Made by a program: the position numbers and the translations under genes. From Escherichia coli (GTDB taxonomy: Bacteria > Pseudomonadota > Gammaproteobacteria > Enterobacterales > Enterobacteriaceae), in assembly GCA_005400705.1 (NCBI GenBank), contig GCA_005400705.1_4079.1: a DNA stretch of 64,000 bases. One strand, 5' to 3'. The notes beneath the pieces are model-generated. The model was given only the letters and a program-made list of their open reading frames with translations, did no database searches and was not told the origin of the DNA. Shown one piece after another: positions 1 to 64,000 of the stretch. Numbering within the stretch: position 1 is the stretch's first letter; each line of letters begins with the position of its first letter.

Positions 1-1
1 A

Positions 2-235
2 GAGTATGTGTTAAAAGCTATCAATCCAGATTCAAGTACAGTTGAAGAAGAACTGTTCCAGATGAGCACTGTTATACCTGAAGAGGTTCTTAGTACTGTT
101 ATTTTTTGTAGTTTAATTTATCATGAATACAAAAAGAACCAGTTCGATTTCCACATGTTAGGAACGTACATCTTCAATAATTTGAATGTAGATCGTTTAA
201 AAGCATTAAATTCAGCAATGGATAAGGTGCTATAA
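2..235 (+). CDS. hypothetical protein, 5' end probably outside window; carries FQMST motif of a paralog family
   Basis: ORF runs to the window edge; the in-frame start at 8 is GTG; contains EELFQMSTV motif shared with ORFs at 1153, 1796, 5280, 16861, 17436. Confidence 0.35.
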   Translation, partial: EYVLKAINPDSSTVEEELFQMSTVIPEEVLSTVIFCSLIYHEYKKNQFDFHMLGTYIFNNLNVDRLKALNSAMDKVL

Positions 236-663
236 TGACAAGAGATGATTGTTTGTACATATGGGATATAATTGAAACTACACTTTCAAATCCAGAAAAT
301 TATAAAACACAAAAAAGACAACGACACAAAACATGGATAGATTTGTTCGTTGAGGACATACACGCAGTGACTATTTGGGATTCACCGAGGACATCAGCAT
401 CTACTCTGTTGGACAATGAATGCATTGATTGTATTAATTCCACTTTTCATCTCCACGGTACTACAATTTTTGGTACATTTCTGGATATTGAAAGTAAAGA
501 TGATATTGATTCACTTGCGTTACAATACCAAGTACTGTATAATACTAAATTAATTTACGATTTAGTACTAGCTTCTTATGTGTATAAATTAATGATGAAA
601 TATAATCATATTTCTGTTTCAGTTTATACTAAGGATATTCTTTCATTAAGAGACAAAACATGA
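235..663 (+). CDS. hypothetical protein (142 aa)
   Basis: ORF track; tight packing with neighbours on + strand. Confidence 0.5.
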   Translation: MTRDDCLYIWDIIETTLSNPENYKTQKRQRHKTWIDLFVEDIHAVTIWDSPRTSASTLLDNECIDCINSTFHLHGTTIFGTFLDIESKDDIDSLALQYQVLYNTKLIYDLVLASYVYKLMMKYNHISVSVYTKDILSLRDKT

Positions 664-1169
664 GTTTATTAAATGCACGCGAATTGGTTGAGATGTATGA
701 GATTTTGTCTTCATATAAAAATTCTCATGGAGATGTGATTCTCGACAAAAAGTTCCATGTCAGTGTTGAAAATATATCAAATATAGATATGATTTCTTTG
801 GTGGAAAGTAATAAGTCAGGTCTTGAACGCGATATCATGCGTTTGATTTATATTCCCAAACCATCATATACTAATGATAGTTCAATTAGTAATGAGACAT
901 TCATGTATAGTCCTGGTACGGATTCTACTATAGTATCGCTGTCCAATAAATCAATGGGTACTTTCCAATTCATCTATACCAGTACTGATAACATTGAAGA
1001 AATTGAATTTCAAAACAATACATTAAGTCCATGTAGTAGTGTTATAACCTTTATGTCATATCTATGGTCAACTAAAACAAGTGCTGTTGTATATAGTTCA
1101 AATTATACACAAGATAGTATTGTTGAATCATATAAAGTTCTAAAGGAATACTATGAAAATAACAAATGA
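660..1169 (+). CDS. hypothetical protein (169 aa)
   Basis: ORF track; 4-nt overlap with upstream gene. Confidence 0.5.
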   Translation: MSLLNARELVEMYEILSSYKNSHGDVILDKKFHVSVENISNIDMISLVESNKSGLERDIMRLIYIPKPSYTNDSSISNETFMYSPGTDSTIVSLSNKSMGTFQFIYTSTDNIEEIEFQNNTLSPCSSVITFMSYLWSTKTSAVVYSSNYTQDSIVESYKVLKEYYENNK

Positions 1170-1734
1170 TTTTATTAAAAGTGTAGTACACCCTATGCTT
1201 AGTATTATGAAAAAAATACAGAATCTACCGGAAGATAACGATTACAAGTTTAATCGTTTTGATTCAGATGTGTTTTGTATTGAAATTGAAATTAATAACA
1301 ATCGCAATTTACATTTAAAATTCAAAGAATCGTCAAGTCCGTACTACAACTTTGATATGAATTTTAAAATAGATACTGACATTGAAGAAAACGTAATATC
1401 AAATCATACTAGCAAAAATGGTTTTATGCATAGAACTACTATGTACAATAATAAAAATAGTATTATATCTAAATGGAATCATCAATTCACTAAAATTTGT
1501 GAAATTGTATATAGTGATTTTGGTGAAGAGAATTACTTTCAGTTAAGTACAATTCATGAACTTCCACCGTATGATTATGTTAAAACATGGTTTGATATTC
1601 ATAATATAATTGATGATGCAATCAAACTTCCATTTGGTGTGTCAATATCATATACTGCTCCTAAAACATTTGTTTTTACTGAAGATATGATTATGAAAAA
1701 GATATGGGCAATTATCCCACTTATGATGGATTAA
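1153..1734 (+). CDS. hypothetical protein, FQLST-motif paralog family
   Basis: ORF track; motif EENYFQLSTIHELPPYDY near C-terminal half. Confidence 0.5.
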   Translation: MKITNDFIKSVVHPMLSIMKKIQNLPEDNDYKFNRFDSDVFCIEIEINNNRNLHLKFKESSSPYYNFDMNFKIDTDIEENVISNHTSKNGFMHRTTMYNNKNSIISKWNHQFTKICEIVYSDFGEENYFQLSTIHELPPYDYVKTWFDIHNIIDDAIKLPFGVSISYTAPKTFVFTEDMIMKKIWAIIPLMMD

Positions 1735-1795
1735 ATTCGTACCAGGGGTTGACTCTGGTATTTTTGTATGATACATTGTCCTAAAGGAGAATTTT

Positions 1796-2347
1796 ATGAA
1801 CTACAATCATGATCTTTTTACATTATGTGCATCCAAATGTGTTGATGGATGGACAGATAAAATCAATACCATAATTCATCGATATCTGGTCTTTAGTTCT
1901 CGTGCACGAAGTGAGGGGGCTATGGATTTCAAATATACACTATCTATTGATGGTGTAACTATCCATGCAGACGAAGAACGTCTGAGCATTAATTTGTATG
2001 ATTCCTGTGTATTTGCTATTCACCAAAAGATGGGGAAAGGATGGGGTTGTAATAACATTAACTCAAAAGCTATCTTTTGGGTTGGTCACCACCAGACAGT
2101 ACTTGATCCTTCAATCAAATCTAATCTTTTATCCGATAATATGGTTTATGATTTATTGTACTCCGAAGAACAACATTTTCAGTTAAGTACATTACATGAT
2201 CTGGCACAGTACGAGGATTGTTACAAAACATTAGAACTATGCCATTCCCTTGAACTTAAAGATAAATTGATACAAGTTTACCCTTCATTCTTTCATGAAG
2301 AAGTACAAAGTACACTAGATCATATTTTATATGGATACGATAAATGA
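1796..2347 (+). CDS. hypothetical protein, FQLST-motif paralog family
   Basis: AAAGGAGA Shine-Dalgarno before ATG 1796; motif EEQHFQLSTLHDLAQYED. Confidence 0.55.
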   Translation: MNYNHDLFTLCASKCVDGWTDKINTIIHRYLVFSSRARSEGAMDFKYTLSIDGVTIHADEERLSINLYDSCVFAIHQKMGKGWGCNNINSKAIFWVGHHQTVLDPSIKSNLLSDNMVYDLLYSEEQHFQLSTLHDLAQYEDCYKTLELCHSLELKDKLIQVYPSFFHEEVQSTLDHILYGYDK

Positions 2348-2946
2348 GAAAAAGTTATCAAGAAGCTATTGACTTAATTCGTGAAGTTATCAAGGTGGCT
2401 CCTGCTGCTATTGAGTTCAAGAAGTCCATATACAAGAAGTATGGTTCAATGTCGAGTATGTGCTTTCAAAAGAAACGTAGAGCATTCACTACCCAGTACT
2501 GGAATGATTCTATCATCCTGAGCAATGAGACTCAGCGTATTTTAACACTAGAATCTGAACCTAATGAGTACGGGGAAGGGAACATTTGTGTACCTGATTA
2601 TGATGAAATTAACTTCAACTGCGGTGATTTTGAAACAACATTATTACTTCATGAGGGTTATCCAGAAGGTGATGTATTAGCTGAGTACAATCCAAAAACT
2701 AAAATTCTCAAAAGAGGAATCCAGTTCACTATTAATAACAAAGATGATGTTCAAGCAGCACTGATGCAACTGAGTACAAGTGAACCTATCACTATTAGTG
2801 TAGAAGAGTTATGGGGAATTATTTCAGTACTCAATGAGTGCTATAAAGTAAAATCATTGCGTAAACACAGCATTATATTACATACCAATATGGCAAATAT
2901 AAAATGTAAGCACATTCAAGAAATGGTGGTTCCAGATGGACTTTAA
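2344..2946 (+). CDS. hypothetical protein (200 aa)
   Basis: ORF track; ATGA overlap with upstream gene. Confidence 0.5.
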   Translation: MRKSYQEAIDLIREVIKVAPAAIEFKKSIYKKYGSMSSMCFQKKRRAFTTQYWNDSIILSNETQRILTLESEPNEYGEGNICVPDYDEINFNCGDFETTLLLHEGYPEGDVLAEYNPKTKILKRGIQFTINNKDDVQAALMQLSTSEPITISVEELWGIISVLNECYKVKSLRKHSIILHTNMANIKCKHIQEMVVPDGL

Positions 2947-3520
2947 AGAAATTGAAAGTAAATTAAAGTACTTCAAAGATATCAAACTTCTTTGGGAAAA
3001 GTATAAAGTTGATTACAATTTCAGTGATGATGACACTGTAAAAACAATTGAGATTAATATCAAAATCAAGTTCAAGAATAATAATTATGGTGAAGTAACC
3101 TTAAATCATACTGGTATATCACTCAAGGACTATGATGGTTCAACACTCGCATATTTTGACTTCACACCAGAACCAGGTGAAACACTACTTAGTGAGATAA
3201 ATTCCTATGACATGGAAGTGTTCGGCGGGAATCCGTTACTGTTCCGACTTTCTGAAGATTGGAGTGAAGAATACTACACTTACAAAGATGGTGTAGTACT
3301 TGACATTAATGGTGAAGTTGTGAATGACTTGGAAGAACGCTTGTTCCAAGAATTGTGTGTTTCAAATACTTCATATGCATACAATCATATCCTTGACATG
3401 TTTGATTTATATAGTAAAATAGATGCTGAAATGAATGCACATGGTATTCATTATCTTACAATCAACGACTATGCTCAACTTGAAACTGTAGTGAAAGCAT
3501 TGACTAAAGTACTGAAATAG
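2936..3520 (+). CDS. hypothetical protein (194 aa)
   Basis: ORF track. Confidence 0.5.
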   Translation: MDFKEIESKLKYFKDIKLLWEKYKVDYNFSDDDTVKTIEINIKIKFKNNNYGEVTLNHTGISLKDYDGSTLAYFDFTPEPGETLLSEINSYDMEVFGGNPLLFRLSEDWSEEYYTYKDGVVLDINGEVVNDLEERLFQELCVSNTSYAYNHILDMFDLYSKIDAEMNAHGIHYLTINDYAQLETVVKALTKVLK

Positions 3521-3529
3521 GAATGAAAT

Positions 3530-3943
3530 ATGAAACTGTATCATGCGAGTACTGTAAAAATTGATAACTTTTATATCCCGTATGGTGGTCTTCATATGGG
3601 AGGTAAACACAGTGCTTTGGAAGCTGCATTACGCAAGCTCAGAAGTCCACTGAACGTAGTAGACGCATGTACAGTATACTTGCATACCTTAGAAGTTGAT
3701 GTTGATAACGTGCTTCTGTGTGAAGATTTAGGCAGTGATGATGAGTGGCGTTCACTTATTGAGAATTGCACTGCTCAAGGTTATGATGCTGTTCAGTACA
3801 AAAATGATTACGAGCCAGACAATGTTCCTAGTTTTATGATTTGGGATGCATCTAAAGTTCGCATCATTGAAGTTGATGCTATGCATATGGATGAAGCTGA
3901 AATGATTATCGAAGATTTTCTTGATGAATATGAAGGTGTATAA
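3530..3943 (+). CDS. hypothetical protein (137 aa)
   Basis: ORF track; GGAATGAAATATG context. Confidence 0.5.
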   Translation: MKLYHASTVKIDNFYIPYGGLHMGGKHSALEAALRKLRSPLNVVDACTVYLHTLEVDVDNVLLCEDLGSDDEWRSLIENCTAQGYDAVQYKNDYEPDNVPSFMIWDASKVRIIEVDAMHMDEAEMIIEDFLDEYEGV

Positions 3944-4461
3944 TGATTGAACCTATGACAGTACTAGCACGTACTAAATTATTATTGAGGATTGGTGAGA
4001 TATTCACTGATATTTTGTACAGTGGGATTGATATACTTGAATTAGGCATTAAGCAACCGTGGGAATTAACCAAGTTCTCTGCGTTCCATCGTTTATCCTA
4101 TAAAGGGGAAACGGTTCTTGACTTGAACCCCAAAGCCAGATTCATGGACTATGCAGCTTTATATGGAACATGTGGAGGAATAACAAATGATTTCAAAGAA
4201 ATTAAAGTTCAAACAGCGTCACATGAATTTAATGATTTATTATATCCAGAATTTAAGTTAACAGAAGAATCATTCTTCCAGTACTCATTGATTTTAAAAG
4301 ATCTTAATGATTTAGAGTACTACAAAGAGTTAGTAGATATTTTTATTAATACACGACTTTCAAAAGATATTGTGATATTCTGGTATACAGAGCATGTTAC
4401 GGAGGAATTGCTTACTGAATTTCTTCTAAATATGACAGCTATAAAGGAGAAGTTATGTTAG
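3943..4461 (+). CDS. hypothetical protein (172 aa)
   Basis: ORF track; start overlaps upstream stop. Confidence 0.5.
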   Translation: MIEPMTVLARTKLLLRIGEIFTDILYSGIDILELGIKQPWELTKFSAFHRLSYKGETVLDLNPKARFMDYAALYGTCGGITNDFKEIKVQTASHEFNDLLYPEFKLTEESFFQYSLILKDLNDLEYYKELVDIFINTRLSKDIVIFWYTEHVTEELLTEFLLNMTAIKEKLC

Positions 4462-4928
4462 ATATTTTAGGAAACATCGACACTGCAAATTATTTTATTC
4501 AAGATGCATTGTTTAATACAGTACAACAAGGTTTAGAAGTTCACCACAATGTTTATCAGGGTGATGGATATTTTGTTGATATTATCGAGACACGTAAAAA
4601 TACATTTAATGTTAACATTACGACGCTTGGAAGACAGAACATTGCACGAATTTTAGTAAGTAAAGATGAAATAGTACTGAGATACAGTGCTAAGTTTATG
4701 TTGACTTATAAGAAAAAAACTGATATGTTCAGTACTAATTTATTTGATGAGCCATTTGACCTTGAAGATATTGAAGCTACTTTCTTTACTCAAAGTACTA
4801 TGGTAAAATACACTGATGTTCAATTTTCTGCTGATGTAATGTCAGAAACATTACAAATGATCAAGGTATTATTTTATGCATTTGAGCAATTTAGAGAAGA
4901 AAGAAACAAGGTTAACAACCACAGATGA
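4455..4928 (+). CDS. hypothetical protein (157 aa)
   Basis: ORF track; AAGGAGAAG before start. Confidence 0.5.
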   Translation: MLDILGNIDTANYFIQDALFNTVQQGLEVHHNVYQGDGYFVDIIETRKNTFNVNITTLGRQNIARILVSKDEIVLRYSAKFMLTYKKKTDMFSTNLFDEPFDLEDIEATFFTQSTMVKYTDVQFSADVMSETLQMIKVLFYAFEQFREERNKVNNHR

Positions 4929-9937: not shown

Positions 9938-10558
9938 ATGCGTAGCATGATAATTCTACTGATGTTGATGCAATCAACGTCACGTATATTCATTGATGTT
10001 TCCATAGGAATAATGATGGCATTTATTAGAAAAGAAAAAACTGTTACTTATAAAACTTTGAATTTTGATGATTGCATTAATCAATCACAAGACGAAGATA
10101 TCTTTACTGGATATGTGGTTATTAAAGAAAAAGGATGCATTTCTTATATAAAGGAATTACAAAATGGAATTGAAGTGACTTCAGTTAAATTACTTCCTAC
10201 TCAAAAACCAACAATATCAAAAGCCCAGTATGGTAATTATTTTGAAGAAAGATATAGTAATAATTCAATAAGTGTTAAGGCTCATATTATTAAAGGAGAA
10301 CTAGAAGGAGAATATAGAAAATACAACCCACAAGGAAAATGTGTTTGGGTTAAATACTTCAATTCAGGATATGATGTAACATCTGAAATTATAGAATTCT
10401 TGGGTTTAAAATGTACCCCTGAGACTATTCATGATTACAAGTTCAATACTGAAGAAGAGTTTAATCTGATGATGCGTTACGGTTCACATTTTAAATTTTT
10501 ATATGAATATAACATTGACAGTAGTACTTTTGATAAGATAGTACACAACTGTCTCTAA
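9938..10558 (+). CDS. hypothetical protein with MORN/YwqK-like repeat signature
   Basis: ORF track; GEYRKYNPQGKCVWVKYFNSG resembles MORN-type repeats; start could be an internal ATG. Confidence 0.45.
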   Translation: MRSMIILLMLMQSTSRIFIDVSIGIMMAFIRKEKTVTYKTLNFDDCINQSQDEDIFTGYVVIKEKGCISYIKELQNGIEVTSVKLLPTQKPTISKAQYGNYFEERYSNNSISVKAHIIKGELEGEYRKYNPQGKCVWVKYFNSGYDVTSEIIEFLGLKCTPETIHDYKFNTEEEFNLMMRYGSHFKFLYEYNIDSSTFDKIVHNCL

Positions 10559-10574: not shown

Positions 10575-11096
10575 ATGTCGAAGAAGGATGCTTCGAAAAA
10601 ACATTCAGTACATTTCAGTACTGGAAAAGATAACTGGACAACTCCCAAAGATTTCTTTGAAGATTTGGATGAGTTATGGGGATTTACACTTGATGCTGCT
10701 TGTGTTGATGAGACTGCATTGTGTGATAATTTTTTCACTCCAGAAGATGATTCACTATCACAGGATTGGGGAAATAATATAGTTTGGTTGAATCCACCAT
10801 ACAGTGACTTGAAAACTTGGTTATCTAAAGCAGTAGATGCATATAATAACGGGGCAACTGTAGTTATTCTTGTACCCTCAAGAACCGACACAATTGCTTT
10901 TCAGGATTATGCTGCTAAAATATGTGATTGTATTTGTTTTATTAAGGGAAGATTACGATTTGGTATACCAGAAGAACCCGATAAGAAAACAGATTCAGCA
11001 CCATTTCCTTCGTGTCTGATAGTACTGGATAAGTACTTAACCACTGCTAAAATCAATTATCTTAAATCTCTTGGGTTGGTGATGAAGAATTTATGA
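10575..11096 (+). CDS. DNA N6-adenine methyltransferase (phage Dam-like)
   Basis: AAAGGA Shine-Dalgarno; catalytic NPPY motif (VWLNPPYSD) typical of N6-adenine/N4-cytosine methyltransferases. Confidence 0.8.
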   Translation: MSKKDASKKHSVHFSTGKDNWTTPKDFFEDLDELWGFTLDAACVDETALCDNFFTPEDDSLSQDWGNNIVWLNPPYSDLKTWLSKAVDAYNNGATVVILVPSRTDTIAFQDYAAKICDCICFIKGRLRFGIPEEPDKKTDSAPFPSCLIVLDKYLTTAKINYLKSLGLVMKNL

Positions 11097-11626
11097 AAGA
11101 AACATGTGTATTAACGTTTGGTCGTATTAATCCTGTACATCGTGGACATGGTTTAGTTTTTGAAAAGGCCAAAACATTACAAGAACAGTACAATGCTGAT
11201 TTAAAAATATATCTAAGCACCAGTACTGACAATATAAAAAACCCACTCCCACCTGAACTAAAAATGTATTATACAGAGGGATTCTATCCTTCAGTGCAAG
11301 AGAACATCTACACAGAAGACAATCTGTTTGATATAATGAGAGAACTGGATGGAAAGTACTTAGATGTTCTTTTCATATGTGGTTCTGACCGTATTGATTC
11401 TTTTCAAAAAACTCTTGACATGTACAATGGTAAGTTGTATAATTTTTGTAGTATAAAAGCAATTCAGGCAGGTATTGACCGTAATGTAAGTCAATATAGC
11501 TCAACACAAATGCGTAACTTCGCAAAAAATGAAGATTTTGATAGTTTTCGTGAGTTTTTACCTGGAAATGACGAGGACTTAAAAATACAATTATTTGAAG
11601 ACGTTATAAAATACATGAGGAAATAA
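11093..11626 (+). CDS. HxGH-family nucleotidyltransferase, NMN/NaMN adenylyltransferase-like
   Basis: TFGRINPVHRGH (H/TxGH motif) and later SSTQMRN (ISSTxIR-like) typical of NadD/NMNAT-class enzymes; ATGA overlap with methyltransferase gene. Confidence 0.55.
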   Translation: MKETCVLTFGRINPVHRGHGLVFEKAKTLQEQYNADLKIYLSTSTDNIKNPLPPELKMYYTEGFYPSVQENIYTEDNLFDIMRELDGKYLDVLFICGSDRIDSFQKTLDMYNGKLYNFCSIKAIQAGIDRNVSQYSSTQMRNFAKNEDFDSFREFLPGNDEDLKIQLFEDVIKYMRK

Positions 11627-11628: not shown

Positions 11629-11922
11629 ATGTCAGTACTGTTCAAAACCAATCCAGTACTTTGGGATCAAAATGAGCAATCAGGATTTCGTTCCATCCAT
11701 GTTGAATACAAAGGTAATACTGTAGTTGCAATTATTGCTAACAAAACTCTAGGAAACTGGACTGCACAGGTTGTTCCTATGGGATATTCTTACACATCTG
11801 ATGAGGTTCAATTCCTGGCTGAACTATATCGTCAAGTGCCGTTTATCATTAATGTACTAGAAGGTAATGATACATTATCACATGAAGATGTGATTAATTT
11901 TCTTGGAAACTTACATGTGTGA
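11629..11922 (+). CDS. hypothetical protein (97 aa)
   Basis: ORF track; GAGGAAATAATTATG. Confidence 0.5.
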   Translation: MSVLFKTNPVLWDQNEQSGFRSIHVEYKGNTVVAIIANKTLGNWTAQVVPMGYSYTSDEVQFLAELYRQVPFIINVLEGNDTLSHEDVINFLGNLHV

Positions 11923-18126: not shown

Positions 18127-18390
18127 ATGAATATTAAAGATAGATTACAATTACTATACACTATTGAACAGGCTGCTTTTGAACTTGTTAATAAAATCTC
18201 CGAAGAACTTCCCAAAGGAACTATAGTTCGTGTAATTGAGAGGGATTATGAATCTGGAGAAATTGAAGAACTAGTACTAACCGTGAATAAAGTAACATAC
18301 TATGAATCTGAGTTGGCTATCCAATGTATATCGGAAGATGGTAAAATATACTATTATGACACTGGTGTAGATATAGAGGTAATAAAATGA
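18127..18390 (+). CDS. hypothetical small protein
   Basis: ATG 18127 directly after upstream stop; ORF-track start 18082 would overlap 44 nt. Confidence 0.45.
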   Translation: MNIKDRLQLLYTIEQAAFELVNKISEELPKGTIVRVIERDYESGEIEELVLTVNKVTYYESELAIQCISEDGKIYYYDTGVDIEVIK

Positions 18391-19529: not shown

Positions 19530-19559
19530 TACTATCTAGCCTAAGCACAAGGAGAAGTG

Positions 19560-19814: not shown

Positions 19815-19823
19815 GGAGTTCAT

Positions 19824-20292: not shown

Positions 20293-20298
20293 GGACAT

Positions 20299-20613: not shown

Positions 20614-20625
20614 CAAGGAGTAATA

Positions 20626-21558
20626 ATGCCAACTATTACACTAACAGTTGGATTACCTGGGTGTGGTAAAACCACATGGGCAGTTCAAGAAATTAAAAAT
20701 GCCAAATCCAAGACTATCAACATCAACCGTGATGATATTCGTGAATCTATGGCTGGGTCACATGATGCTTACAAATTCAACGATGCTAATGAGCAGTACG
20801 TAACTAATTTACAGTTCAGTGCAGCAAATTCAGCAGCAGAGAATGGTTGGAACATCATCATATCCGATACAAACCTTAAACAACATTTCCGTAATCTCTG
20901 GAAAGTATGGGCTAAAGATAATGGTTATGATTACAAAGAAAAGAACTTCTATGATGATTTTGTACCTAATGAAGACCGTGGTGCAGATGTTCATGAATTC
21001 TTTAAGATTAAAGAGTTCGTAAAACTTTGTAAGAAATATAACCTTCAGCGTGAGCGTTCAGTACAAGATAATATCATTGACACAATGGCAGATACGTACT
21101 ATTATAGTAAGGCATTGCACATTGGTTACTATGGTAATTCACGAGAAGCTGCTGTTATCGTTGATATTGACGGTACTCTTGCTCATAAATGGGGTCGTAA
21201 TCCTTACGATGAAAGTACTGTTCTTCAGGATACACCTGATGAAGAAGTTATTTTGTCTATTATCGCTGAAGCAGTTTTTCATAAACGCAAGATTATCGTC
21301 ATGAGTGGGCGTACTGAAGGGTGTCGTACTGACACCGAACAGTGGCTTAAGAATTGGGGTGTTCCTTACGATGCATTGTTTATGCGAGGCATCGATGATA
21401 AACGTCCTGATGATGTTGTTAAATTCGACCTGTACATGAAAAATGTGGTTAATCAATACGATGTTAAAAAGGTATATGATGACCGCGAAGCCGTGACGTT
21501 CATGTGGCGTAAGCTACTTGGTTTGAAGGTATTTCAAGTAGATTTTGGACGTTTTTGA
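20626..21558 (+). CDS. pseT: polynucleotide 5'-kinase / 3'-phosphatase
   Basis: P-loop GLPGCGKTT near N-terminus, NINRDD, and HAD-type VIVDIDGTLA phosphatase motif; collinear with T4 Pnk as recalled; AAGGAG Shine-Dalgarno. Confidence 0.9.
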   Translation: MPTITLTVGLPGCGKTTWAVQEIKNAKSKTININRDDIRESMAGSHDAYKFNDANEQYVTNLQFSAANSAAENGWNIIISDTNLKQHFRNLWKVWAKDNGYDYKEKNFYDDFVPNEDRGADVHEFFKIKEFVKLCKKYNLQRERSVQDNIIDTMADTYYYSKALHIGYYGNSREAAVIVDIDGTLAHKWGRNPYDESTVLQDTPDEEVILSIIAEAVFHKRKIIVMSGRTEGCRTDTEQWLKNWGVPYDALFMRGIDDKRPDDVVKFDLYMKNVVNQYDVKKVYDDREAVTFMWRKLLGLKVFQVDFGRF

Positions 21559-21577
21559 TAAAATAAATAGTGCATAT

Positions 21578-22285
21578 ATGACAAAAAGGACTTTCTATAT
21601 GCACTATTATATTATATATAAAATAACCAATTTAATTAATAATAAAATTTATATTGGTGCTCATATGACTGATGACATAAATGATGAATATATGGGTTCA
21701 GGTGTTCTGATAAAGAAATCCATTAAGAAATATGGAATTGAAAAATTCAATAAAGAAATACTTTATATTTTTGATAATAAAGAAGAAATGTATAACAAAG
21801 AAAGAGAAATTGTTAATGAACAATTTATACAAAGAAGCGACACATATAACATCAAACGTGGTGGAGAAGGTGGCTACGGCGTAATTGATAAAGAAAATTG
21901 GAAAAAACAAATATCAACGGCACAAAAGAAGCGATATTCTTCAGGTGTTGTGGCTTGGAATAAAGGTAAATCTGTATCAGAAGAAACACGTATTCAAATG
22001 AGTCAGAGGATGAAAGGTCGTTTCCCTGGAGATAAAAATCCTATGCATGGTAAACCCTGTACATATAAAATGACAGATGAAGAAAAAACATCATGGTCCA
22101 ACAATATAAAGAAATCAAACACTGGTAAAAAGAGAACTGATGTTCAAAAACAAAAATATTCTTCGGTCGCGTCAAAACGAATTTGGTTAGTTCATAAAAG
22201 TGGTAAAGTTACTAATACACAAAATGAAAATGACCCACGTTTGAATGATCCAGATTGGCAACGTGGTCAAAAGTGGAGAGAATGA
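21578..22285 (+). CDS. GIY-YIG homing endonuclease (Seg-like) with NUMOD-type DNA-binding repeats
   Basis: YIIYKITNLINNKIYIGAH (GIY-YIG motif), WNKGK and KNPMHGK repeats; start at 21578 or 21599 (ORF-track start 21545 overlaps pseT). Confidence 0.75.
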   Translation: MTKRTFYMHYYIIYKITNLINNKIYIGAHMTDDINDEYMGSGVLIKKSIKKYGIEKFNKEILYIFDNKEEMYNKEREIVNEQFIQRSDTYNIKRGGEGGYGVIDKENWKKQISTAQKKRYSSGVVAWNKGKSVSEETRIQMSQRMKGRFPGDKNPMHGKPCTYKMTDEEKTSWSNNIKKSNTGKKRTDVQKQKYSSVASKRIWLVHKSGKVTNTQNENDPRLNDPDWQRGQKWRE

Positions 22286-22310
22286 ATATTTTTATGGATT
22301 ATAATTTTTG

Positions 22311-35548: not shown

Positions 35549-35675
35549 CTGTTATAAACTGTACACCTTAAGTTTTATTTTTTAAAAATTTGAGTTAAGT
35601 ACAGAAAAAGTTTGACTTAAGTGTTTAAGTACTATATTATTTATATCTTCCTAAACAAAATTGAGGACTTGTTAT

Positions 35676-43122: not shown

Positions 43123-43132
43123 GGTATTTTAA

Positions 43133-44481: not shown

Positions 44482-44493
44482 GAAAAAAATATC

Positions 44494-44727
44494 ATGAAAA
44501 ATATATTCATTACATTAACAATATTTGTATCCATTATTCTCTGTGGTTGTGCTCCTAAAGTTGATGAGATGGATGCTGAAATCATCCGTCAAGGTTTAAC
44601 AAAACTAAATCACCAAGGAACACTATACGCATGTCATACTATGCGTCATGGGCAAGATCTTAATCTCATGTGCAGGAAGATTGTGAATCGCAAACGTCTT
44701 AATACTGTTCCGAAGGATGCACAATGA
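44494..44727 (+). CDS. putative small lipoprotein (77 aa)
   Basis: MKNIFITLTIFVSIILCGCAPK: signal peptide with lipobox-like LCGC. Confidence 0.5.
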   Translation: MKNIFITLTIFVSIILCGCAPKVDEMDAEIIRQGLTKLNHQGTLYACHTMRHGQDLNLMCRKIVNRKRLNTVPKDAQ

Positions 44728-44894
44728 AAGAAGTAATTGACTACAAATGTAAAAATTGTGGCAAAGATAAGGGTAAGCATTCAGTACAAGGGATGGCTTG
44801 CCCGAATCCAGGTCGTGGTAATTTCAGCGGGTTCAGTACTGAAAAGTCTTACGAACCGGATCATACCAAACCTGTAATGGGTTATAAATTATGA
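44724..44894 (+). CDS. small zinc-ribbon-like protein (56 aa), below ORF-track cutoff
   Basis: ATG 44724 overlapping upstream stop; CKNCG and MACPNPG; ends in ATGA overlap with next gene. Confidence 0.4.
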   Translation: MKEVIDYKCKNCGKDKGKHSVQGMACPNPGRGNFSGFSTEKSYEPDHTKPVMGYKL

Positions 44895-45250: not shown

Positions 45251-45296
45251 TATCAGTACTACCACAGTGGGCAGTACTTTTTAATTGGAGATTACT

Positions 45297-47680: not shown

Positions 47681-47783
47681 ACTTGTCATAGGTTGTAGTG
47701 CACTTGCTGCATATATGCTTTTTTCCGCACCAACCAATGTATTACTGTTAATTTGGGCAGTTGTTATATTAGCAGTACTTTAA

Positions 47784-47806
47784 AGCACCCTAGTGGTGCT
47801 TTTTCT
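47784..47806 (+). terminator. rho-independent terminator
   Basis: stem AGCACC...GGTGCT followed by TTTTCT. Confidence 0.65.
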
Positions 47807-47875
47807 ATTTGTGCAAATAAAAACCAATGTGACTTTTCCTTGATATAGGTCAAGAGAAATAACCTGTTCTGACGC

Positions 47876-50089: not shown

Positions 50090-50531
50090 TTTAGTAAATG
50101 GAGAGGGCGTTCGCTGCTCTTTATTTGTTAGTGGGTGTTCGCACGGATGTGATGGTTGCTTCAATGAAGAAGCATGGGATTACAGAAGTGGTCAATTGTT
50201 CAGTACTGAAACAGTTGAGATTATACTACAGGAACTAAAAAAACCATATGTTAGTGGTTTGTCACTTCTAGGCGGCGATCCATTAATGAAAAAGAATATA
50301 GATGAAGTTTTAAATCTATGCAAAGTAGTTAAAGAAACTTATCCTAGTAAAACTATTTGGTGCTGGAGTGGGTATACTTTAGATGAGATTATGAAAAATC
50401 ATGCTAAAGATATACTTCAGTACTTAGATGTATTAGTTGATGGTAAGTTTATTGAGTCCGAAAAGAATTTAAAATTACCTTTTCGTGGTTCAAATAATCA
50501 AAGAATACTATATAAAAATAAAGATTTTTAG
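50061..50531 (+). CDS. nrdG: anaerobic ribonucleotide reductase activating protein (radical SAM)
   Basis: CSHGCDGCFN radical-SAM cysteine cluster; adjacency to nrdD. Confidence 0.85.
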   Translation: MNYQTIIKDDLVNGEGVRCSLFVSGCSHGCDGCFNEEAWDYRSGQLFSTETVEIILQELKKPYVSGLSLLGGDPLMKKNIDEVLNLCKVVKETYPSKTIWCWSGYTLDEIMKNHAKDILQYLDVLVDGKFIESEKNLKLPFRGSNNQRILYKNKDF

Positions 50532-58319: not shown

Positions 58320-58721
58320 ATGACTACAGTTGATGATATCTATAGCACTATACGCAATATGAGTACAGATAGAAAAGTATTTGGCGATAAAGAAAAATCT
58401 AAGTGTTATGGTATTGATTCTTTTGATATAATTTCTTATGAGTACAATACAAGTGGAAATAGTTCACTGAATATCGTCTGTCCTCGTGACCCAGAAAATA
58501 ATTTTATGTATGTTGAAATTAATAATGATGGAATGTTTTTTACAAAAGTTTTCAAAGGTGGAATTAATTACGAACCTATTGAATGTATGAATGAAGAAAC
58601 TTTCTTTCAAGAAGATACAATTATCAATTTAGGTTTTAGTTTTGATGATTATAAAACATTAGAACATGACTTTAATCGTTATTATAATGGTTTCTTAAAG
58701 GAGTTAACAATTTATCTATGA
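58320..58721 (+). CDS. hypothetical protein (133 aa)
   Basis: ORF track. Confidence 0.5.
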   Translation: MTTVDDIYSTIRNMSTDRKVFGDKEKSKCYGIDSFDIISYEYNTSGNSSLNIVCPRDPENNFMYVEINNDGMFFTKVFKGGINYEPIECMNEETFFQEDTIINLGFSFDDYKTLEHDFNRYYNGFLKELTIYL

Positions 58722-59950
58722 ATAACCAATATATTGAACAAACAATAGTGAAACACTTGGCTGGGTCACAAGCCTACGGAACCAGTACACCTGAAAGTGA
58801 TACTGATTATCGTGGTATTTTTCTTGCTAATAAAGAATTTATTCTTACACCCTTCTATAAGGTCAAAGAGGTAGCTGATAAAAGCGAAGAAGATACTAAA
58901 TTCTATGAGTTGAATCAGTATTTAAAATTATACACTGAAGCTAACCCTAATATTCTTGAATCACTTTGGGTTGAACCTGAACACATTGTTGAAAGTACTG
59001 AAATTTATGACTATCTTCGTTCATTTAACCAAAAACTTCTTAGTTCCAAGATTGCATTTTCATATACTGGTTATGCATATAATCAGATTAAGCGTATGAC
59101 AAATCATCACGGTTGGATGGATAAAGAGCGTATTGCTGAAAAACGATTAAATGAGATTTTAGAAGAACACCCTGTCGATGAGGTTCTTGCGTGGATGTAT
59201 GATTCATTCCCACAGTATCTTGTTGAACGTTTAGATACATCCAACTTACATCCATTTAATGCTAAAAAGATTGATTTTGAAAAATATATGCGTGATACAT
59301 CATTGCAGTTAGTTTCGAAAAATCCATTAAAGCAATATCATTTCGTAAGATTAGTGCATAACTACACTACTGAAAAAATTCTTGATCGTGATTTCAATTT
59401 ATTGAATTTTAATAATGGTTATGAACTAATTCATTACGGAGAAAACATTTTTGCGATTGTTAAGAATCCTAATGAAAGCACTATTAACCATGATGGTTCA
59501 TTGCGTTATTTTTCAAAAGAACGTAGTACTGAAGAGTTGAAAACCAAACCAGAACTAATTGTAAAATTTAACGAAAAAGAATATCAGGAGAATAGTGAGA
59601 ATAGGAAAAGTTATCATAAATGGAAAGAAAATCGTAATGCCAAACGTGCTATTTTAGAATCACAACACGGATACGATTGTAAACATGCTATGCACACAAT
59701 CCGACTTTTGAATAGTGCAGAAGAAGCATTACAAAGTGGAATTATTCAAGTTAAACGACCAGATGCACAAATGTTGATGGATATTCGTAATGGTAAATGG
59801 AAGTATGAAGAAGTATTAGAATATTTCGATGATAAAGTACAATACATTCGTGATGTTCTATATAAGAAATCAGTACTTCCTAAAAAACCAAACATCAAGT
59901 TAGCATCAAAAATTATCATTGATATTAGAGAAATGCAATGGTATAAGTAA
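58718..59950 (+). CDS. Pol-beta-superfamily nucleotidyltransferase-domain protein (410 aa)
   Basis: N-terminal GSQAYGTSTPESDTDYRGIF = G[SG]x9-13Dh[DE]h nucleotidyltransferase signature; ATGA overlap. Confidence 0.55.
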   Translation: MNNQYIEQTIVKHLAGSQAYGTSTPESDTDYRGIFLANKEFILTPFYKVKEVADKSEEDTKFYELNQYLKLYTEANPNILESLWVEPEHIVESTEIYDYLRSFNQKLLSSKIAFSYTGYAYNQIKRMTNHHGWMDKERIAEKRLNEILEEHPVDEVLAWMYDSFPQYLVERLDTSNLHPFNAKKIDFEKYMRDTSLQLVSKNPLKQYHFVRLVHNYTTEKILDRDFNLLNFNNGYELIHYGENIFAIVKNPNESTINHDGSLRYFSKERSTEELKTKPELIVKFNEKEYQENSENRKSYHKWKENRNAKRAILESQHGYDCKHAMHTIRLLNSAEEALQSGIIQVKRPDAQMLMDIRNGKWKYEEVLEYFDDKVQYIRDVLYKKSVLPKKPNIKLASKIIIDIREMQWYK

Positions 59951-60656: not shown

Positions 60657-63446
60657 ATGTTAAACAATAATATTGATAATATTGTACAACTTCTTTATGG
60701 GCATCACAAATTTATTGAAAGAAATACTGGTGATACAATAGACCCAACAGTACAACATTATGTGGTGAACAATCAGGGTGTTTTGGCGAACAACCGTCAT
60801 TTTATTAACTATTCTGCAATGGAAGGTCAACCAAACGGTGACGGAACAACAGAAGGTCAAAGTCTATTAATTTTAGGATACATTTATGCGTATCTGGCAA
60901 CAAATGATCCAATGTTTTTAGATAAGGCAAAGTGGTATTGGGACGCATATCATCAGTACTTTTATGCTGGACGTGAATTACCAGATCCACCTACACCACT
61001 ACAATGTAACTGGATAGTTAATGCCAAAGAACCTATATTGGCTAACTGGCCTTTAGCTGATGATGGCTGGCCCACACATGGTGGTTTCAAGGGTGTAGAA
61101 TTTACATTTACAAATGGACAATGTAAAATACCACATGGTGCACCTTATTATGGTCAGTTCTTGGATAAAGTAACATTTGCATTCAAAGGTGCTTTAGCAT
61201 GGAACCAAATAAATGCGTCAGTAAAAGCATTATTACCAGATGGTAGTGTTGATTGGGATACACCAGGTGAACAATATGATGTTGACTGGATTATCGATTT
61301 CATGGGTAGAAAAATCGACTGGGATGGTAATATTTTAGCAGAAGGTTTTGACGAATCTGAAAAAGGAACTGTTCAATTAAAGAATACAACAATTAATGGT
61401 GTATATAAATTAAATTTTGCAAATCGTCAACCAGTAGAATATGGTGGTGTGATAATTCAACGAAATGAAATGCAACACAACCGCCCTCTTCATGTTCCAA
61501 TTGATTTGGAATTTGCTGATAACGCATCAGATGCAGAATTATGGTTTAGTGATGCTTCTTATTTGTTATATAAAATAACAAAAGAAAGAAAACATTATTT
61601 GGGTTGGAAATGTTCACTACTAACGTGTTATGCTTATGGTGATATTGACTCCAGAGATAAATTTTTCAGACAAAGTACAATTGTAACCACACCATTCACT
61701 GATGGTATTTCCTATGAATATTTTTATCCTAGTGATGCTATTGCTAAGTTTGGTAGAAATTCTCTAGGATATATTACTATCAGGCAAGACCAAAGTGCAC
61801 AAAGTACTATGGAACAACAAGCTATTTGGTTCAGGGTCAATGCTGATTCTAAATTACTTGTAGACTATGGTGGTGTATGTGATGATGGTAAGCCGTTATC
61901 ATTTAAACCAGTACTGGAATTGTCAAAAACAAAAAATGACCATGATGTTGTTCGTTATCGTTGTGGCTTACCGGAAAGTAAAGACCAAAATATCACACAT
62001 TCATTAACACCTTTAAGTGCATTTGTTAGAGAAAAGAAAGCAGATGGTTCCCCTTATATAATTGCTGATAGTAGAATTGTTGTTCCTTATGGTGCAGCTA
62101 CATCCGAAATGATATATAGTACTGATATATTAGTTACACGCCGAGATACCATTAATCAGTTAGTTTGTGGTGAAGATGATGGTGCTGTTATTGGATTTTG
62201 GCTATTAGCAACAAATAAGTCTGAAGTTAAATCTTTTACATATCGTTCATATGAAGATGATTACAATATAAGAATTGTAGATGATAATGGTTGGAGATGG
62301 TGGTGGATGATTCCTGCAACACACGGGGAATGGACTACAATCACACTAAGTTCCGATACATTACGTTTATCTGGGTATCAGCCAAATCATCCAAGTTCTG
62401 ACCCAAGACCAGATGCACCAGTTTATAGTGAGCTAGAAGATATTACTATTTTACCTGATACAACCCCAGTAGATGGTGTTGCTGCAATAATTGATTGGTA
62501 TTGTATTAATGACATTCCAGAATTATATACGGATGCTGATGGTGATGACTATACTATGACATTTTCAATAACAATTGCAGGTGAATCACCATATACTGCA
62601 CAGTTAGGGGATTGTGTAATCAAAGATTATTTGTTAAACTCATTGCATTACACACCAGGAACAATACCATTTTCTAACATCACTGACCCGTATGCGAACC
62701 AGTATTCAGGATGGCGTGGTTTACCGTATCCAGGTTATCAATATCCTGTGATATATTGTTTTAAAGACCAGCCAGTAGATAACACACGCTTAGGAAACAT
62801 GTTAAGCTTTATGAAAGATTCCCAAACATGGTTTACTCAACAATTCGGTACTGTTGGTCCGTGTGCACAAGCATATGTTTGGAACCGCTGGGATAACTTA
62901 AAGTATGGTGAACCAGATACATTTACTATGCTACATTGGGGTGATCAAGCATGGAGTGGGTATGAACCACGTGCGTTCTTTGGGGCTGCCAGAGCATGGC
63001 AAGAACTCGCAGAGAGAGGAATTGAACCACCAGCAGATCTTGTTGAATTTTGTGAGAATTGGATTCACTTTTTAATTCAATTTCAAAAAGATAATGATGG
63101 TCGTTCACCAACAATCTTCAATAAAGATGGCACAGTTGAAGGTCCAGATTGGGACTTTACGGGTCATATGTGTGGGTTGTGGTTAGCTGGGGCTTGTGCT
63201 GCTGGGTTGGCTGGATGTAAAATAGAAGGTCTAACAACACTCGCTGATAACTTAGTTCTCGAACTTCAAAAGAATTATGTTATTGTAAATCCAGGTTCAC
63301 CAATGAATGGTTCATGGAGTCCAGCAGTTAGAGAAGGTACTGATAATGGTATGTTTTTTGGTTTCTGGGCAGGTGAGAATATGCGTGGATTGGGATTATA
63401 CTCAATGTACCGCTTAAACACACCAAATCGTTTCCGTGATTTATAA
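60657..63446 (+). CDS. large Trp-rich protein (929 aa); possible carbohydrate-active or tail-associated protein
   Basis: GCAGGAG before ATG; C-terminal third is Trp/Gly/aromatic-rich in a way reminiscent of glycoside-hydrolase toroid domains; weak inference. Confidence 0.5.
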   Translation: MLNNNIDNIVQLLYGHHKFIERNTGDTIDPTVQHYVVNNQGVLANNRHFINYSAMEGQPNGDGTTEGQSLLILGYIYAYLATNDPMFLDKAKWYWDAYHQYFYAGRELPDPPTPLQCNWIVNAKEPILANWPLADDGWPTHGGFKGVEFTFTNGQCKIPHGAPYYGQFLDKVTFAFKGALAWNQINASVKALLPDGSVDWDTPGEQYDVDWIIDFMGRKIDWDGNILAEGFDESEKGTVQLKNTTINGVYKLNFANRQPVEYGGVIIQRNEMQHNRPLHVPIDLEFADNASDAELWFSDASYLLYKITKERKHYLGWKCSLLTCYAYGDIDSRDKFFRQSTIVTTPFTDGISYEYFYPSDAIAKFGRNSLGYITIRQDQSAQSTMEQQAIWFRVNADSKLLVDYGGVCDDGKPLSFKPVLELSKTKNDHDVVRYRCGLPESKDQNITHSLTPLSAFVREKKADGSPYIIADSRIVVPYGAATSEMIYSTDILVTRRDTINQLVCGEDDGAVIGFWLLATNKSEVKSFTYRSYEDDYNIRIVDDNGWRWWWMIPATHGEWTTITLSSDTLRLSGYQPNHPSSDPRPDAPVYSELEDITILPDTTPVDGVAAIIDWYCINDIPELYTDADGDDYTMTFSITIAGESPYTAQLGDCVIKDYLLNSLHYTPGTIPFSNITDPYANQYSGWRGLPYPGYQYPVIYCFKDQPVDNTRLGNMLSFMKDSQTWFTQQFGTVGPCAQAYVWNRWDNLKYGEPDTFTMLHWGDQAWSGYEPRAFFGAARAWQELAERGIEPPADLVEFCENWIHFLIQFQKDNDGRSPTIFNKDGTVEGPDWDFTGHMCGLWLAGACAAGLAGCKIEGLTTLADNLVLELQKNYVIVNPGSPMNGSWSPAVREGTDNGMFFGFWAGENMRGLGLYSMYRLNTPNRFRDL

Positions 63447-63477
63447 CTTGACATAGAAAAAGTAATTATGTATAATT

Positions 63478-63507
63478 AGAGAACTTCATATGGAGTTCTC
63501 TTTTTTA
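63478..63507 (+). terminator. rho-independent terminator
   Basis: stem AGAGAACT...AGTTCTCT followed by TTTTTT. Confidence 0.75.
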
Positions 63508-63519
63508 TAAGGTGATAAA

Positions 63520-63939
63520 ATGTTAAATGAACGTATTAAAAATGCACTACATGTATTGAACCAAGAAGTTAATTCTATCGATAAAAGTACTGACCGTTAT
63601 AAAGTAATGCATGAAATCAAACAAGAATTGGAATCTATTAATAAGGGAGAATGGTGGTATCTTCAGCCCGAATATCAAACTCGTGAATTAAACGATGTTG
63701 AAAAAGAAATTGTCAAATTCATCACTACTCGTTACTGTGATACATCAGAGAATGATGTATCAGCGAACTTCAATCTTACTAAATTGGAAGTAGAAGAAAA
63801 ATTCAATTTTGATTGGCTTGATTGGCTTGAAATGGTGATGGAACTAGAAGAAAAATTCAATGTTGAAGTTGATGAAAAGTTCGAGAATAATGAAACTAAG
63901 CTGTATGAACTAGCAGAACATATTCAAAACATGTTGTAA
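63520..63939 (+). CDS. hypothetical acidic protein (139 aa)
   Basis: ORF track; contains near-duplicated EEKFNFDW / EEKFNVEVDEKFE segments. Confidence 0.5.
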   Translation: MLNERIKNALHVLNQEVNSIDKSTDRYKVMHEIKQELESINKGEWWYLQPEYQTRELNDVEKEIVKFITTRYCDTSENDVSANFNLTKLEVEEKFNFDWLDWLEMVMELEEKFNVEVDEKFENNETKLYELAEHIQNML

Positions 63940-64000
63940 ACCTATACAATTGTATGCTCTAAATAATATCATCAACTATAGGAGATATTATTATGAGTAT

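Follow-up and report, generated by a model that had tools for sequence, protein, structure and literature searches.

The palindrome AGTACT is a selected, exact DNA hexamer in an Escherichia jumbo phage and its RaK2-like relatives

What keeps a single six-letter palindrome at high density throughout the genes of a phage? The question is raised by a 64,000-nt stretch of DNA deposited under Escherichia coli (GenBank assembly GCA_005400705.1, contig GCA_005400705.1_4079.1; the whole stretch is called the window below), in which a preliminary description had noted strong over-representation of AGTACT and of its extended form CAGTACTG. Exact counting finds AGTACT 182 times where base composition predicts 21.5 copies (8.5-fold), and CAGTACTG 39 times where 0.58 are expected. 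The earlier estimates of well over 100 and 35–40 copies, against expectations of about 20 and about 1, were therefore correct; the example positions given with them lie near true sites but are off by 0–12 nt (exact starts in Table 1). The analyses described here establish AGTACT as a positively selected, symmetric and exact hexamer, selected at the level of the DNA and forming a synapomorphy of the RaK2-like jumbo phages.

AGTACT ranks first by z-score among all 4096 hexamers of the window and is its only strongly enriched hexamer palindrome; related counts are 112 for CAGTAC, 103 for GTACTG, 9 for TCAGTACTGA and 2 for TTCAGTACTGAA. Low-order composition as the cause is ruled out by Markov nulls up to order 3. 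The order-3 model, which already absorbs the tetramers of AGTACT itself, predicts 61.2 copies (simulation standard deviation 7.7, maximum 81), and the word remains at the top of the list, 2.7-fold above even this self-inflated expectation; models of order 4 and above are contaminated by the motif. Shuffling synonymous codons within genes, a procedure that keeps the protein sequence and the codon usage of each gene, leaves 40.6 ± 5.9 copies in plus-strand coding sequence, where 167 are observed (z = 21), and shuffling codon order leaves 22.6. The alternative that the preliminary description had set against its own claim, a count close to that of a codon-preserving shuffle, is contradicted by both kinds of null.

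As had been described, the motif is read in each of the three frames, and intergenic DNA contains it too: 80 copies are read as AGT-ACT, 56 as xxA-GTA-CTx and 31 as xAG-TAC-Txx, and 13 are intergenic, at the same density as in coding sequence. Overall, 169 of the 182 copies are intragenic, and about 95% of the sites are intragenic without a promoter context. The codons concerned are common here (AGT, ACT and GTA make up 34%, 41% and 38% of their families), and the usage of the word still goes far beyond them. Fifty-nine percent of Ser-Thr dipeptides (80/135) are spelled AGT-ACT, compared with 19 (14%) expected from codon usage; X-Val-Leu contexts take the form xxA-GTA-CTx 56 times, with 9.5 expected, and the third frame gives 31 against 4.6. 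The dipeptides themselves are in excess, Ser-Thr occurring 135 times (88 expected) and Val-Leu 148 times (96 expected), while the reverse-order controls Thr-Ser (86) and Leu-Val (90) are flat, which indicates that the motif has altered protein sequences. Together with the two shuffles, these controls rule out codon or dipeptide bias as the cause.

We assign the window, on the basis of its database matches, to an Escherichia jumbo phage in the genus Asteriusvirus (121Q/PBECO4 group), within the RaK2-like jumbo phages. A megablast search with positions 20000–28000 matched 36 phage records, all of them jumbo myoviruses of about 350 kb from Escherichia or Salmonella that belong to this group, with identities of up to 98.6%, and the window corresponds to approximately 183–247 kb of phage 121Q. 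A scan of IMG/VR using the ligase returned only 121Q itself. Comparison with these relatives shows that individual sites are conserved above their surroundings. In phage TH47 (84% identity), 82 of 116 AGTACT sites (70.7%) are intact, compared with 47.9% of flanking hexamers in the same phase (p = 3.5e-6); the corresponding values are 93.5% and 83.6% in 121Q (96.9% identity, p = 9e-4) and 97.7% and 91.8% in ECO103 4-12-1 (98.0% identity, p = 0.01). Sites also turn over, 34 being confined to the window and 19 to TH47 in that comparison. Ser-Thr is spelled AGT-ACT in 38–66% of cases, alike in core replication and structural genes, accessory genes, early genes and four other genera, which points to a roughly uniform pressure. 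Density in 121Q is 3–6-fold above expectation in core genes and about 20-fold in the tiny early genes; the lower density of core genes is mainly a matter of the freedom allowed by each protein.

Enrichment extends well beyond this group. AGTACT is over-represented in the 150 kb of 121Q outside the window (E. coli; 428 copies, 50.7 expected, 8.4-fold), PHA46 (Salmonella; 112, 13.9, 8.1-fold), RaK2 (Klebsiella; 91, 8.3, 10.9-fold), GAP32 (Cronobacter; 59, 8.3, 7.1-fold), CBB (Pectobacterium; 57, 8.3, 6.8-fold), XbC2 (Xanthomonas; 58, 6.9, 8.4-fold) and XaC1 (Xanthomonas; 77, 7.0, 11.0-fold), the ClpP of the last being just 45% identical. Pooling gives 610 copies over 214 kb for the 121Q group and 545 over 182 kb for the six other phages, which implies about a thousand sites per genome. 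The identity of the word has been kept across a clade that shares core replication, recombination and packaging genes. Because the hosts include both Enterobacterales and Xanthomonas, whatever reads the motif must be phage-borne or universal; a reader confined to the bacterial group of Dam, SeqA and SlmA is excluded, and an Enterobacterales-restricted host factor was rejected for this reason.

A phyletic contrast is provided by the outgroup Pseudomonas phage PA5oct, which is similar in GC content (33.5%) and shares core genes with the clade (tblastn E values of 6e-56 for ligase and 4e-28 for ClpP). In 274 kb of PA5oct AGTACT occurs 14 times where 93 copies are expected (0.15-fold), which makes it the most depleted hexamer among those with an expectation of at least 30; none of 40 Ser-Thr dipeptides is spelled AGT-ACT, and the dipeptide excess is absent. 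GTGCAC (0.08-fold) and CACGTG (0.30-fold) are also among its most avoided palindromes. Palindrome avoidance in PA5oct is otherwise mild, with no hexamer palindrome absent from the 274 kb, and AGTACT and GTGCAC are still strongly avoided. PA5oct also carries genes of the 7-deazaguanine pathway (GTP cyclohydrolase I, QueD and 7-carboxy-7-deazaguanine synthase), which suggests base modification as its main anti-restriction strategy. Host DNA is poor in the motif as well: a 50-kb sample of E. coli K-12 holds 3 copies where 11.6 are expected, or 0.06 per kb compared with 2.84 per kb in the window, a 47-fold contrast.

The selected unit is the AGTACT hexamer with weak two-fold symmetric flanks, and neither the octamer nor any longer form stands as an entity apart from it. 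No one-mismatch variant of AGTACT is enriched more than 2.5-fold in the window. The preceding base is C in 89 of 182 copies (49%) and the following base, position +6, is G in 82 (45%); these preferences are independent, since they coincide 39 times with 40.1 expected, and an order-6 Markov model predicts 40.1 copies of CAGTACTG for the 39 observed. Of the enriched palindrome first described, the hexamer thus stands, while the 8- to 12-mer as a unit in its own right, tried as octamer and as 12-mer, does not. A weak T-rich/A-rich extension reaches ±4 nt and the information is close to zero further out, which rules out a longer dispersed repeat such as a repetitive extragenic palindrome or miniature inverted-repeat transposable element. 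In plus-strand coding sequence the flank preference (C at −1 in 81/167, G at +6 in 79/167) is reverse-complement symmetric and of the same strength in frames 0 and 2, although the flanking bases occupy other positions of the codon in each. The pattern favours a symmetric reader of duplex DNA over an RNA or translational signal. The opposite flanks, G at −1 (17/182, half its background frequency) and C at +6 (12/182), are disfavoured in all lineages examined, and flank preferences vary somewhat between genera. The preliminary argument that selection acts on the DNA, and not on codons or dipeptides, is therefore borne out on several grounds: the codon-preserving nulls, the occurrence in all frames and between genes, the symmetric flanks, the conservation of sites and the recurrence across the clade.

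The enrichment is set in a genome from which other palindromes have been removed. Twenty-six of the 64 hexamer palindromes are absent from the window, among them essentially every GC-rich one, each of which is expected about five times; 27–33 are absent in six related phages. The premise that phages deplete short palindromes is accordingly valid for this one. GGTACC and CGTACG are missing (0 against 42 and 0 against 22 expected) despite sharing the GTAC core, and their removal alongside the enrichment of AGTACT implies that the specificity for AGTACT is sharp. The sole GC-rich palindromes tolerated in the motif-rich clade are GTGCAC (46, with 44.5 expected) and CACGTG (24, with 28.5 expected), both at the neutral level of the order-3 model. 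Avoidance of another kind concerns TATTTA (7 against 50) and TAAATA (19 against 49), the most under-represented hexamers of the window under a maximal-order Markov model, and the T4-type late-promoter word TATAAATA, found once with about 11 expected. The late-promoter consensus of the clade is reported to be ATAAATA (CBB genome paper), and these deficits suggest avoidance of spurious late promoters in both orientations.

Sites in the window are spaced more evenly than under random placement (coefficient of variation [CV] 0.80 compared with 0.99, P = 0.0015), as they are in 121Q 1–50 kb (CV 0.72, P = 0.0035) and in PHA46 (CV 0.79, P = 0.005). Genes lacking a site number 24, with 34.9 expected, and only 3 among genes of at least 450 bp (7.4 expected); the largest motif-free gap is 1468 bp (62118–63586). 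In the window we found no helical phasing of close site pairs, no clustering beyond chance and no bias of position within genes. The third-largest gap, 21214–22477, contains an insertion (Table 1) whose ORF (open reading frame) at 21578–22285 encodes 235 aa, has no AGTACT and matches GIY-YIG, SegE and NUMOD3 only weakly, each time under the Pfam cutoff; its probable product is a free-standing homing endonuclease. Pooled with two HNH and two Hef-type genes, this insertion makes a set of five homing-endonuclease-type genes holding 4 copies of AGTACT where 17.1 are expected (P = 1.8e-4), and their poverty in the motif fits a slow accumulation in long-resident DNA.

At promoters the motif takes a fixed position. 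The early region of 121Q (130–150 kb) has 130 copies in 20 kb and places them in fixed register within sigma-70-type promoters, of the forms AAAAGTACTTGCAA-N16-TATAAT, TTGACA-N9-AGTACTGTATAAT and AGTACTATTGACA-N9-AGTACTGGCATAAT. Of 40 promoter-like sites in 121Q 100–150 kb, 19 contain AGTACT; 15 of 23 promoter occurrences begin 7–8 bp upstream of the −10, and most of the others adjoin the −35. The last bases of the motif double as promoter bases, supplying the TG that precedes the −10 or the T that opens the −35, and promoters of the 121Q tRNA region have the motif at both positions, 22 bp apart. One promoter of this kind lies in the window, with the register of the 121Q early promoters (Table 1). 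Two further non-coding arrangements in the window involve hairpins. The self-complementary copies of a two-copy site just upstream of a gene could pair, as judged from their sequence, as a short terminator-like hairpin, and a copy directly 5' of a terminator-like hairpin has a counterpart in the 121Q early region (AGTACTGAATCACTAGCCCAC...GTGGGCTTTTT). Just upstream of the early-gene cluster, a gene-free 2.1 kb of 121Q (135.2–137.2 kb) holds 21 copies, mostly as AGTACTGA(A/T), together with an iteron-like array of GATGGCTAGA/CTAGATGGCTG units; this segment is a candidate replication origin or packaging centre. The tRNA set of 121Q (72.7–78.0 kb) includes tRNA-Ser with anticodon ACU, which reads AGU, and tRNA-Thr(UGU); both decode the codon families of AGT-ACT, which fits a motif that raises demand for those codons.

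We considered what might recognise such a word. AGTACT has the form of a modification target, being a short exact palindrome with an adenine, at position 4, that is symmetric on both strands, and the window encodes an N6-adenine DNA methyltransferase (Table 1). This protein scores 91.5 bits against TIGR01712, just below the cutoff of 97. It is 66% identical to its counterpart in PHA46, 63% in RaK2 and 50% in XaC1, and at most 44% identical to proteins outside the clade, and it represents a clade subfamily distinct from other phage Dam-family enzymes. Its gene is conserved and syntenic in all motif-rich lineages tested, adjoining a cytidylyltransferase gene in 121Q, PHA46 and RaK2 and lying a few genes from one in XaC1, and adenine methylases have been reported in CBB and GAP32 (PMC5259590). 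No homologue was detected in 274 kb (95.5%) of the PA5oct genome (best E value 0.18), where positive controls were detected. This pairing of the enzyme with enrichment, and of its absence with avoidance, would follow if AGTACT were hazardous when unmethylated and the enzyme conferred protection. The C-to-T decay products AGTATT and AATACT are not raised in the window, and there is thus no sign of 5-methylcytosine deamination at AGTACT. The idea that PF05869 includes non-specific adenine methyltransferases of the Hia5 group was not borne out; the published account relates those to Dam/DpnM (PMC3299994).

The explanation toward which we lean, tentatively and with doubts that are set out below, is that this clade-specific PF05869 enzyme acts at AGTACT and that the dense marking so produced is read both at early promoters and throughout the genome, as a tag of self or of replication state. 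In this model, a conserved phage-encoded factor would recognise the AGTACT duplex with two-fold symmetry and with an all-or-none hexamer specificity reminiscent of restriction-modification. The methyltransferase would methylate the adenine on both strands, setting an epigenetic mark about every 350 bp of phage DNA, and the mark, or the transient hemimethylated state that follows replication, would be read by other phage functions. One read-out would be at early promoters, where AGTACT abuts the −35 and −10 hexamers; another would be genome-wide and would distinguish phage from host DNA, or old from new strands. The targeting of AGTACT by the enzyme, the reading of the mark and its read-out are all steps that we infer: the specificity of the enzyme cannot be read from its sequence, and AGTACT is a candidate target. 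A broader proposal, which we regard as possible and slightly more doubtful, is that RaK2-like phages, having neither modified bases nor a nucleus, tell their own DNA by this selected tag, through the methyltransferase and a reader that serve early-promoter timing and at least one genome-wide process. With similar reserve, we suggest nuclease sparing, packaging choice, or discrimination of strands or of replication state as candidates for that process, the outgroup avoiding the word as a hazard.

Several observations weigh against this model. Characterised members of PF05869, such as the Dam proteins of T1 and Stx phages, methylate GATC. Protection alone would lead to neutrality, as is seen for GTGCAC and CACGTG, so that the 8-fold enrichment and the conservation of sites oblige us to postulate a second, reading function; yet a Pfam search of 52 window ORFs found no relevant DNA-binding, nuclease or methyl-reader domain. 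The neighbours of the methyltransferase gene (9938–10558, 11093–11626 and 11629–11922) have no nuclease domain and no solved relative, and the ORF upstream of it, which lacks a nuclease signature, is only 28% conserved in XaC1; these comparisons lend no support to a partner nuclease beside the methyltransferase. The authors of the RaK2 study took unpublished digests, with data not shown, to indicate methylation of the Dam, Dcm or CpG type (PMC3622015). Flank effects such as those of AGTACT are met more typically with binding proteins than with modification enzymes. Finally, the phyletic contrast depends on a single outgroup, PA5oct, the density in host DNA on one 50-kb sample, and even spacing reaches significance in just 3 of the 8 regions tested, the other five showing a non-significant trend.

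The methylation model has a close precedent in the Dam-GATC system, in which a methylated palindrome recurs every few hundred base pairs. Whether it is fully methylated or hemimethylated there serves to discriminate strands, set timing and control promoters, through SeqA and MutH, at the pac site of phage P1 and at promoters that respond to methylation (IS10 pIN, Mu mom). AGTACT resembles it as a palindrome with a symmetric adenine, in the company of a Dam-family enzyme and inside promoters. It differs in the word itself, and methylation of AGTACT is a prediction. GATC is depleted about 2-fold in the window (90 copies, 193 expected by composition; 0.47-fold) though a Dam-family methyltransferase is encoded there; it stands at 0.63–0.86-fold in related phages and at 1.23-fold in the E. 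coli sample. The Pfam scan of the 52 window ORFs found no reader like SeqA or MutH. Restriction-site avoidance offers a second comparison within the same genome, since AGTACT is also a type II site (ScaI) and 26–33 of the 64 hexamer palindromes are absent across the clade. For AGTACT the sign is reversed, the sites being enriched and under purifying selection, whereas avoidance theory would let a protected site reach neutrality and no more; PA5oct, with its 0.15-fold depletion, treats the word classically.

A different kind of reader would be a dimeric phage DNA-binding protein without enzymatic activity, a global regulator or nucleoid organiser with about a thousand sites per genome. Such a protein, which we consider possible but rather unlikely, could use AGTACT as an operator that shuts off or times early transcription, and elsewhere coat the DNA, for example to counter host silencing of AT-rich DNA. 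It would account for the fixed promoter register, with the motif abutting the −10 or the −35 and sometimes both, for the weak symmetric flank preferences and their variation between genera, and for the peaks of density in the early region and in the iteron-like centre of 121Q. The register may, however, partly reflect duplicated promoter cassettes and the doubling of TG and T as promoter bases. An all-or-none hexamer without enriched one-mismatch neighbours is unusual for transcription-factor sites, and a thousand sites per genome copy would require a very abundant protein. No candidate emerged from the 52 window ORFs by Pfam, and the lack of helical phasing and of clustering in the window, together with an intragenic density equal to the intergenic one, also counts against the idea.

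The even spacing and the contrast with host DNA call to mind signals that are met by tracking enzymes. AGTACT could be a tracking or entry signal of the Chi or uptake-sequence kind, read without methylation, in either direction and on both strands, although we judge this unlikely. The candidate readers are phage enzymes that travel along DNA or begin at random positions: a nuclease or recombination complex that would spare tagged DNA or be activated by it, a terminase that prefers phage to host DNA in headful packaging, or a primase whose recognition site is long. The 47-fold host contrast, the scarcity of long gaps and of site-free genes, a pressure that is uniform once coding opportunity is allowed for and that acts on coding and non-coding DNA alike, and the conservation of the word across the clade are all compatible with such a signal, and phages of this type, with unmodified bases and without nucleus-forming genes (PMC11895373), need some other cue of self and non-self. 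The argument is nonetheless circumstantial, in that no enzyme is implicated and the fixed promoter register is left unexplained, and the avoidance of AGTACT in PA5oct is more naturally a cleavage hazard than the consequence of a missing tracking system. Known signals of this class, Chi and the FtsK-orienting polar sequences (KOPS), are asymmetric and strand-skewed. Known primases read 3–5 nt.

The likeness to Chi, read by RecBCD in E. coli and AddAB elsewhere, lies in a short exact word that is several-fold over-represented within genes in all frames; as a mark of self for a DNA-tracking enzyme, rarer in foreign DNA, Chi has a logic that fits the host contrast and the tendency to even spacing. 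Chi is asymmetric, skewed with replication, spaced at about one per 4.5 kb and cellular, whereas AGTACT is palindromic, so that skew is impossible, occurs about once per 0.35 kb and is viral. We identified no RecBCD-like reader of AGTACT and made no systematic search for such an enzyme. The exact Chi octamer GCTGGTGG itself shows no notable enrichment in the window, with 2 + 2 copies, two per strand. Chi-like words are enriched there (TGCTGGTG 9 times with 0.37 expected, TGGTGG 41 times with 8 expected), which is probably an effect of GCT-GGT-GNN codon repeats and not of selection for Chi. The uptake sequences of Pasteurellaceae (USS) and Neisseria (DUS) are likewise dense (about one per kb), more evenly spaced than random and accommodated through codons and amino acids; they are also found paired at terminators, and the window shares these features. 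They differ in being 9–12 nt long, non-palindromic, read by the competence machinery and thought to have accumulated partly by molecular drive. A competence receptor is not applicable to a virulent phage, and no uptake bias is known for phage DNA; a packaging bias would be the nearest analogue.

That a host factor such as SlmA, RNA polymerase or a topoisomerase reads AGTACT, the phage accumulating sites to exploit it, is improbable. The consensus GTGAGTACTCAC bound by SlmA, a nucleoid-occlusion protein, contains AGTACT as its core, and the motif is built into early promoters on which host RNA polymerase acts. The flanks that define SlmA sites are, however, absent or disfavoured in the phage: GAGTACTC and GT.AGTACT.AC both occur 0 times in the window, which rules out SlmA-binding sites, and all the lineages examined disfavour G at −1 and C at +6. 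The trait is moreover found in Xanthomonas phages, the host sample is depleted in AGTACT, and nearly all window sites lie within genes away from promoters. We give still less credence to an RNA-level signal, in which AGUACU in mRNA would be a processing or binding site and the palindromy of the DNA incidental. Since 108 of the 111 window ORFs are on the plus strand, most copies are transcribed as AGUACU, and RNA-repair genes are abundant; but the flank preferences mirror each other as reverse complements while acting independently, a pattern not expected of an RNA signal, and copies lie upstream of −10 and −35 hexamers. The minus-strand gene block of 121Q (120–130 kb) is equally enriched, an observation that, for a palindrome, cannot discriminate. 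Least credible of all is that AGTACT has no function and simply reflects the usage of codons or dipeptides, a mutation bias, dispersed repeats or relaxed restriction avoidance: its codons are common and GTGCAC and CACGTG show that palindromes can be tolerated, but those two are neutral while AGTACT exceeds its order-3 expectation, its one-mismatch neighbours are not depleted as conversion bias would require, and the shuffles, the spread over frames and intergenic DNA, the absence of conserved sequence beyond ±4 nt, the conservation of sites above local controls and the flat reverse dipeptides all speak against it.

The functions listed in the preliminary description, among them a binding site for a dimeric phage protein, a modification, nicking or packaging-related site and a recombination or nuclease-protection signal, thus still cover the hypotheses that are alive. 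The evidence supports narrowing them to a phage-encoded reader and points to one of restriction-modification type, with the methyltransferase as a candidate. Enrichment of AGTACT or GTAC is not mentioned in the literature on these phages that we covered, which includes the genome papers of Sharanji, CBB, RaK2 and PA5oct and leaves out subscription journals, and in the full-text literature covered CAGTACTG turned up in primer sequences only.

Table 1. Positions of AGTACT sites and associated features in the window.
Feature	Position	Strand	Description
AGTACT array	1..64000	.	182 hexamers, first 92, last 63586, mean spacing 351 bp
CAGTACTG starts, 1–20 of 39	980, 2494, 5996, 7794, 7896, 8361, 9051, 10616, 11221, 11633, 11985, 12356, 13247, 14515, 15026, 17579, 19265, 22476, 23102, 27254		
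CAGTACTG starts, 21–39 of 39	28141, 29577, 34047, 36037, 38026, 39518, 39821, 40298, 41763, 42765, 43176, 44834, 48277, 49192, 50201, 52298, 53861, 56607, 61909		
CAGTACTG starts for the examples in the preliminary description	5996, 7794, 7896, 8361, 10616, 19265, 29577, 44834, 49192, 50201		
Full 12-mer palindrome TTCAGTACTGAA, 1 of 2	44832..44843	.	exact count
Full 12-mer palindrome TTCAGTACTGAA, 2 of 2	50199..50210	.	exact count
N6-adenine DNA methyltransferase gene	10575..11096	+	173 aa; Pfam PF05869 'Dam', E = 7e-32; NPPY catalytic motif
Motif-free insertion	21540..22310	+	window-specific, absent from 121Q; GIY-YIG/NUMOD3-like homing-endonuclease ORF; internal negative control
Sigma-70-type promoter-like site	35612..35640	+	TTGACT-N17-TATTAT; AGTACT 35628–35633 in spacer, ending 1 bp before −10
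Two-copy site	45255..45282	+	AGTACT at 45255 and 45273 (18 bp apart), then TTTT; next gene starts at 45297
AGTACT with terminator-like hairpin	47774..47810	+	motif directly 5' of GC-stem/T-run (aaagcacc...ggtgcttttt)

The remaining gene content of the window includes products identified as RNA ligase, polynucleotide kinase, DNA ligase, Clp-type proteases, Sir2/Nudix proteins, PhoH and anaerobic ribonucleotide reductase. An RNA-repair set at 18387–21558 and 58718–59950 comprises RNA ligase, polynucleotide kinase/phosphatase and a protein of the RlaP family (E 6e-16), DNA polymerase beta-like nucleotidyltransferases of an RNA repair pathway. Besides the insertion in Table 1, a second segment, 42929–44536, has no megablast match in 121Q; it contains a 323-aa ORF (43133–44104) whose C-terminal part matches the WGR domain (E 1e-10), a module that binds nucleic acids and occurs in PARP-type proteins. 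Two large orphan proteins of 898 aa (50608–53304) and 909 aa (53920–56649) are paralogous, with 27.5% identity over 945 aa, and a 195-aa ORF between them resembles their N-terminal part; no Pfam domain was found in these three or in a 929-aa ORF (60657–63446). At 235–4928, nine successive ORFs of similar length (137–200 aa) have no Pfam match and no mutual similarity detectable by BLASTP.

Phages avoid short palindromes as restriction targets, and the clade described here obeys this rule to an extreme except for one word. An 8- to 11-fold enrichment that extends across several genera, with force enough to have altered both codons and amino acids, implies that a hitherto undescribed cis-acting system operates at about a thousand sites per genome. 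In its over-representation AGTACT resembles the tags of bacteria (Chi, the uptake sequences and Dam-GATC); what is new is that it is viral, palindromic, several-fold denser and located in a genome that purges palindromes, and, if the proposed tag is real, it would be the viral counterpart of these systems. Were it a mark of self, it would answer how large virulent phages without modified bases or a nucleus-like compartment separate their own DNA from that of the host. In practical terms, AGTACT is a simple diagnostic of the clade and a design constraint for the engineering of these phages, several of which have been proposed for therapy.

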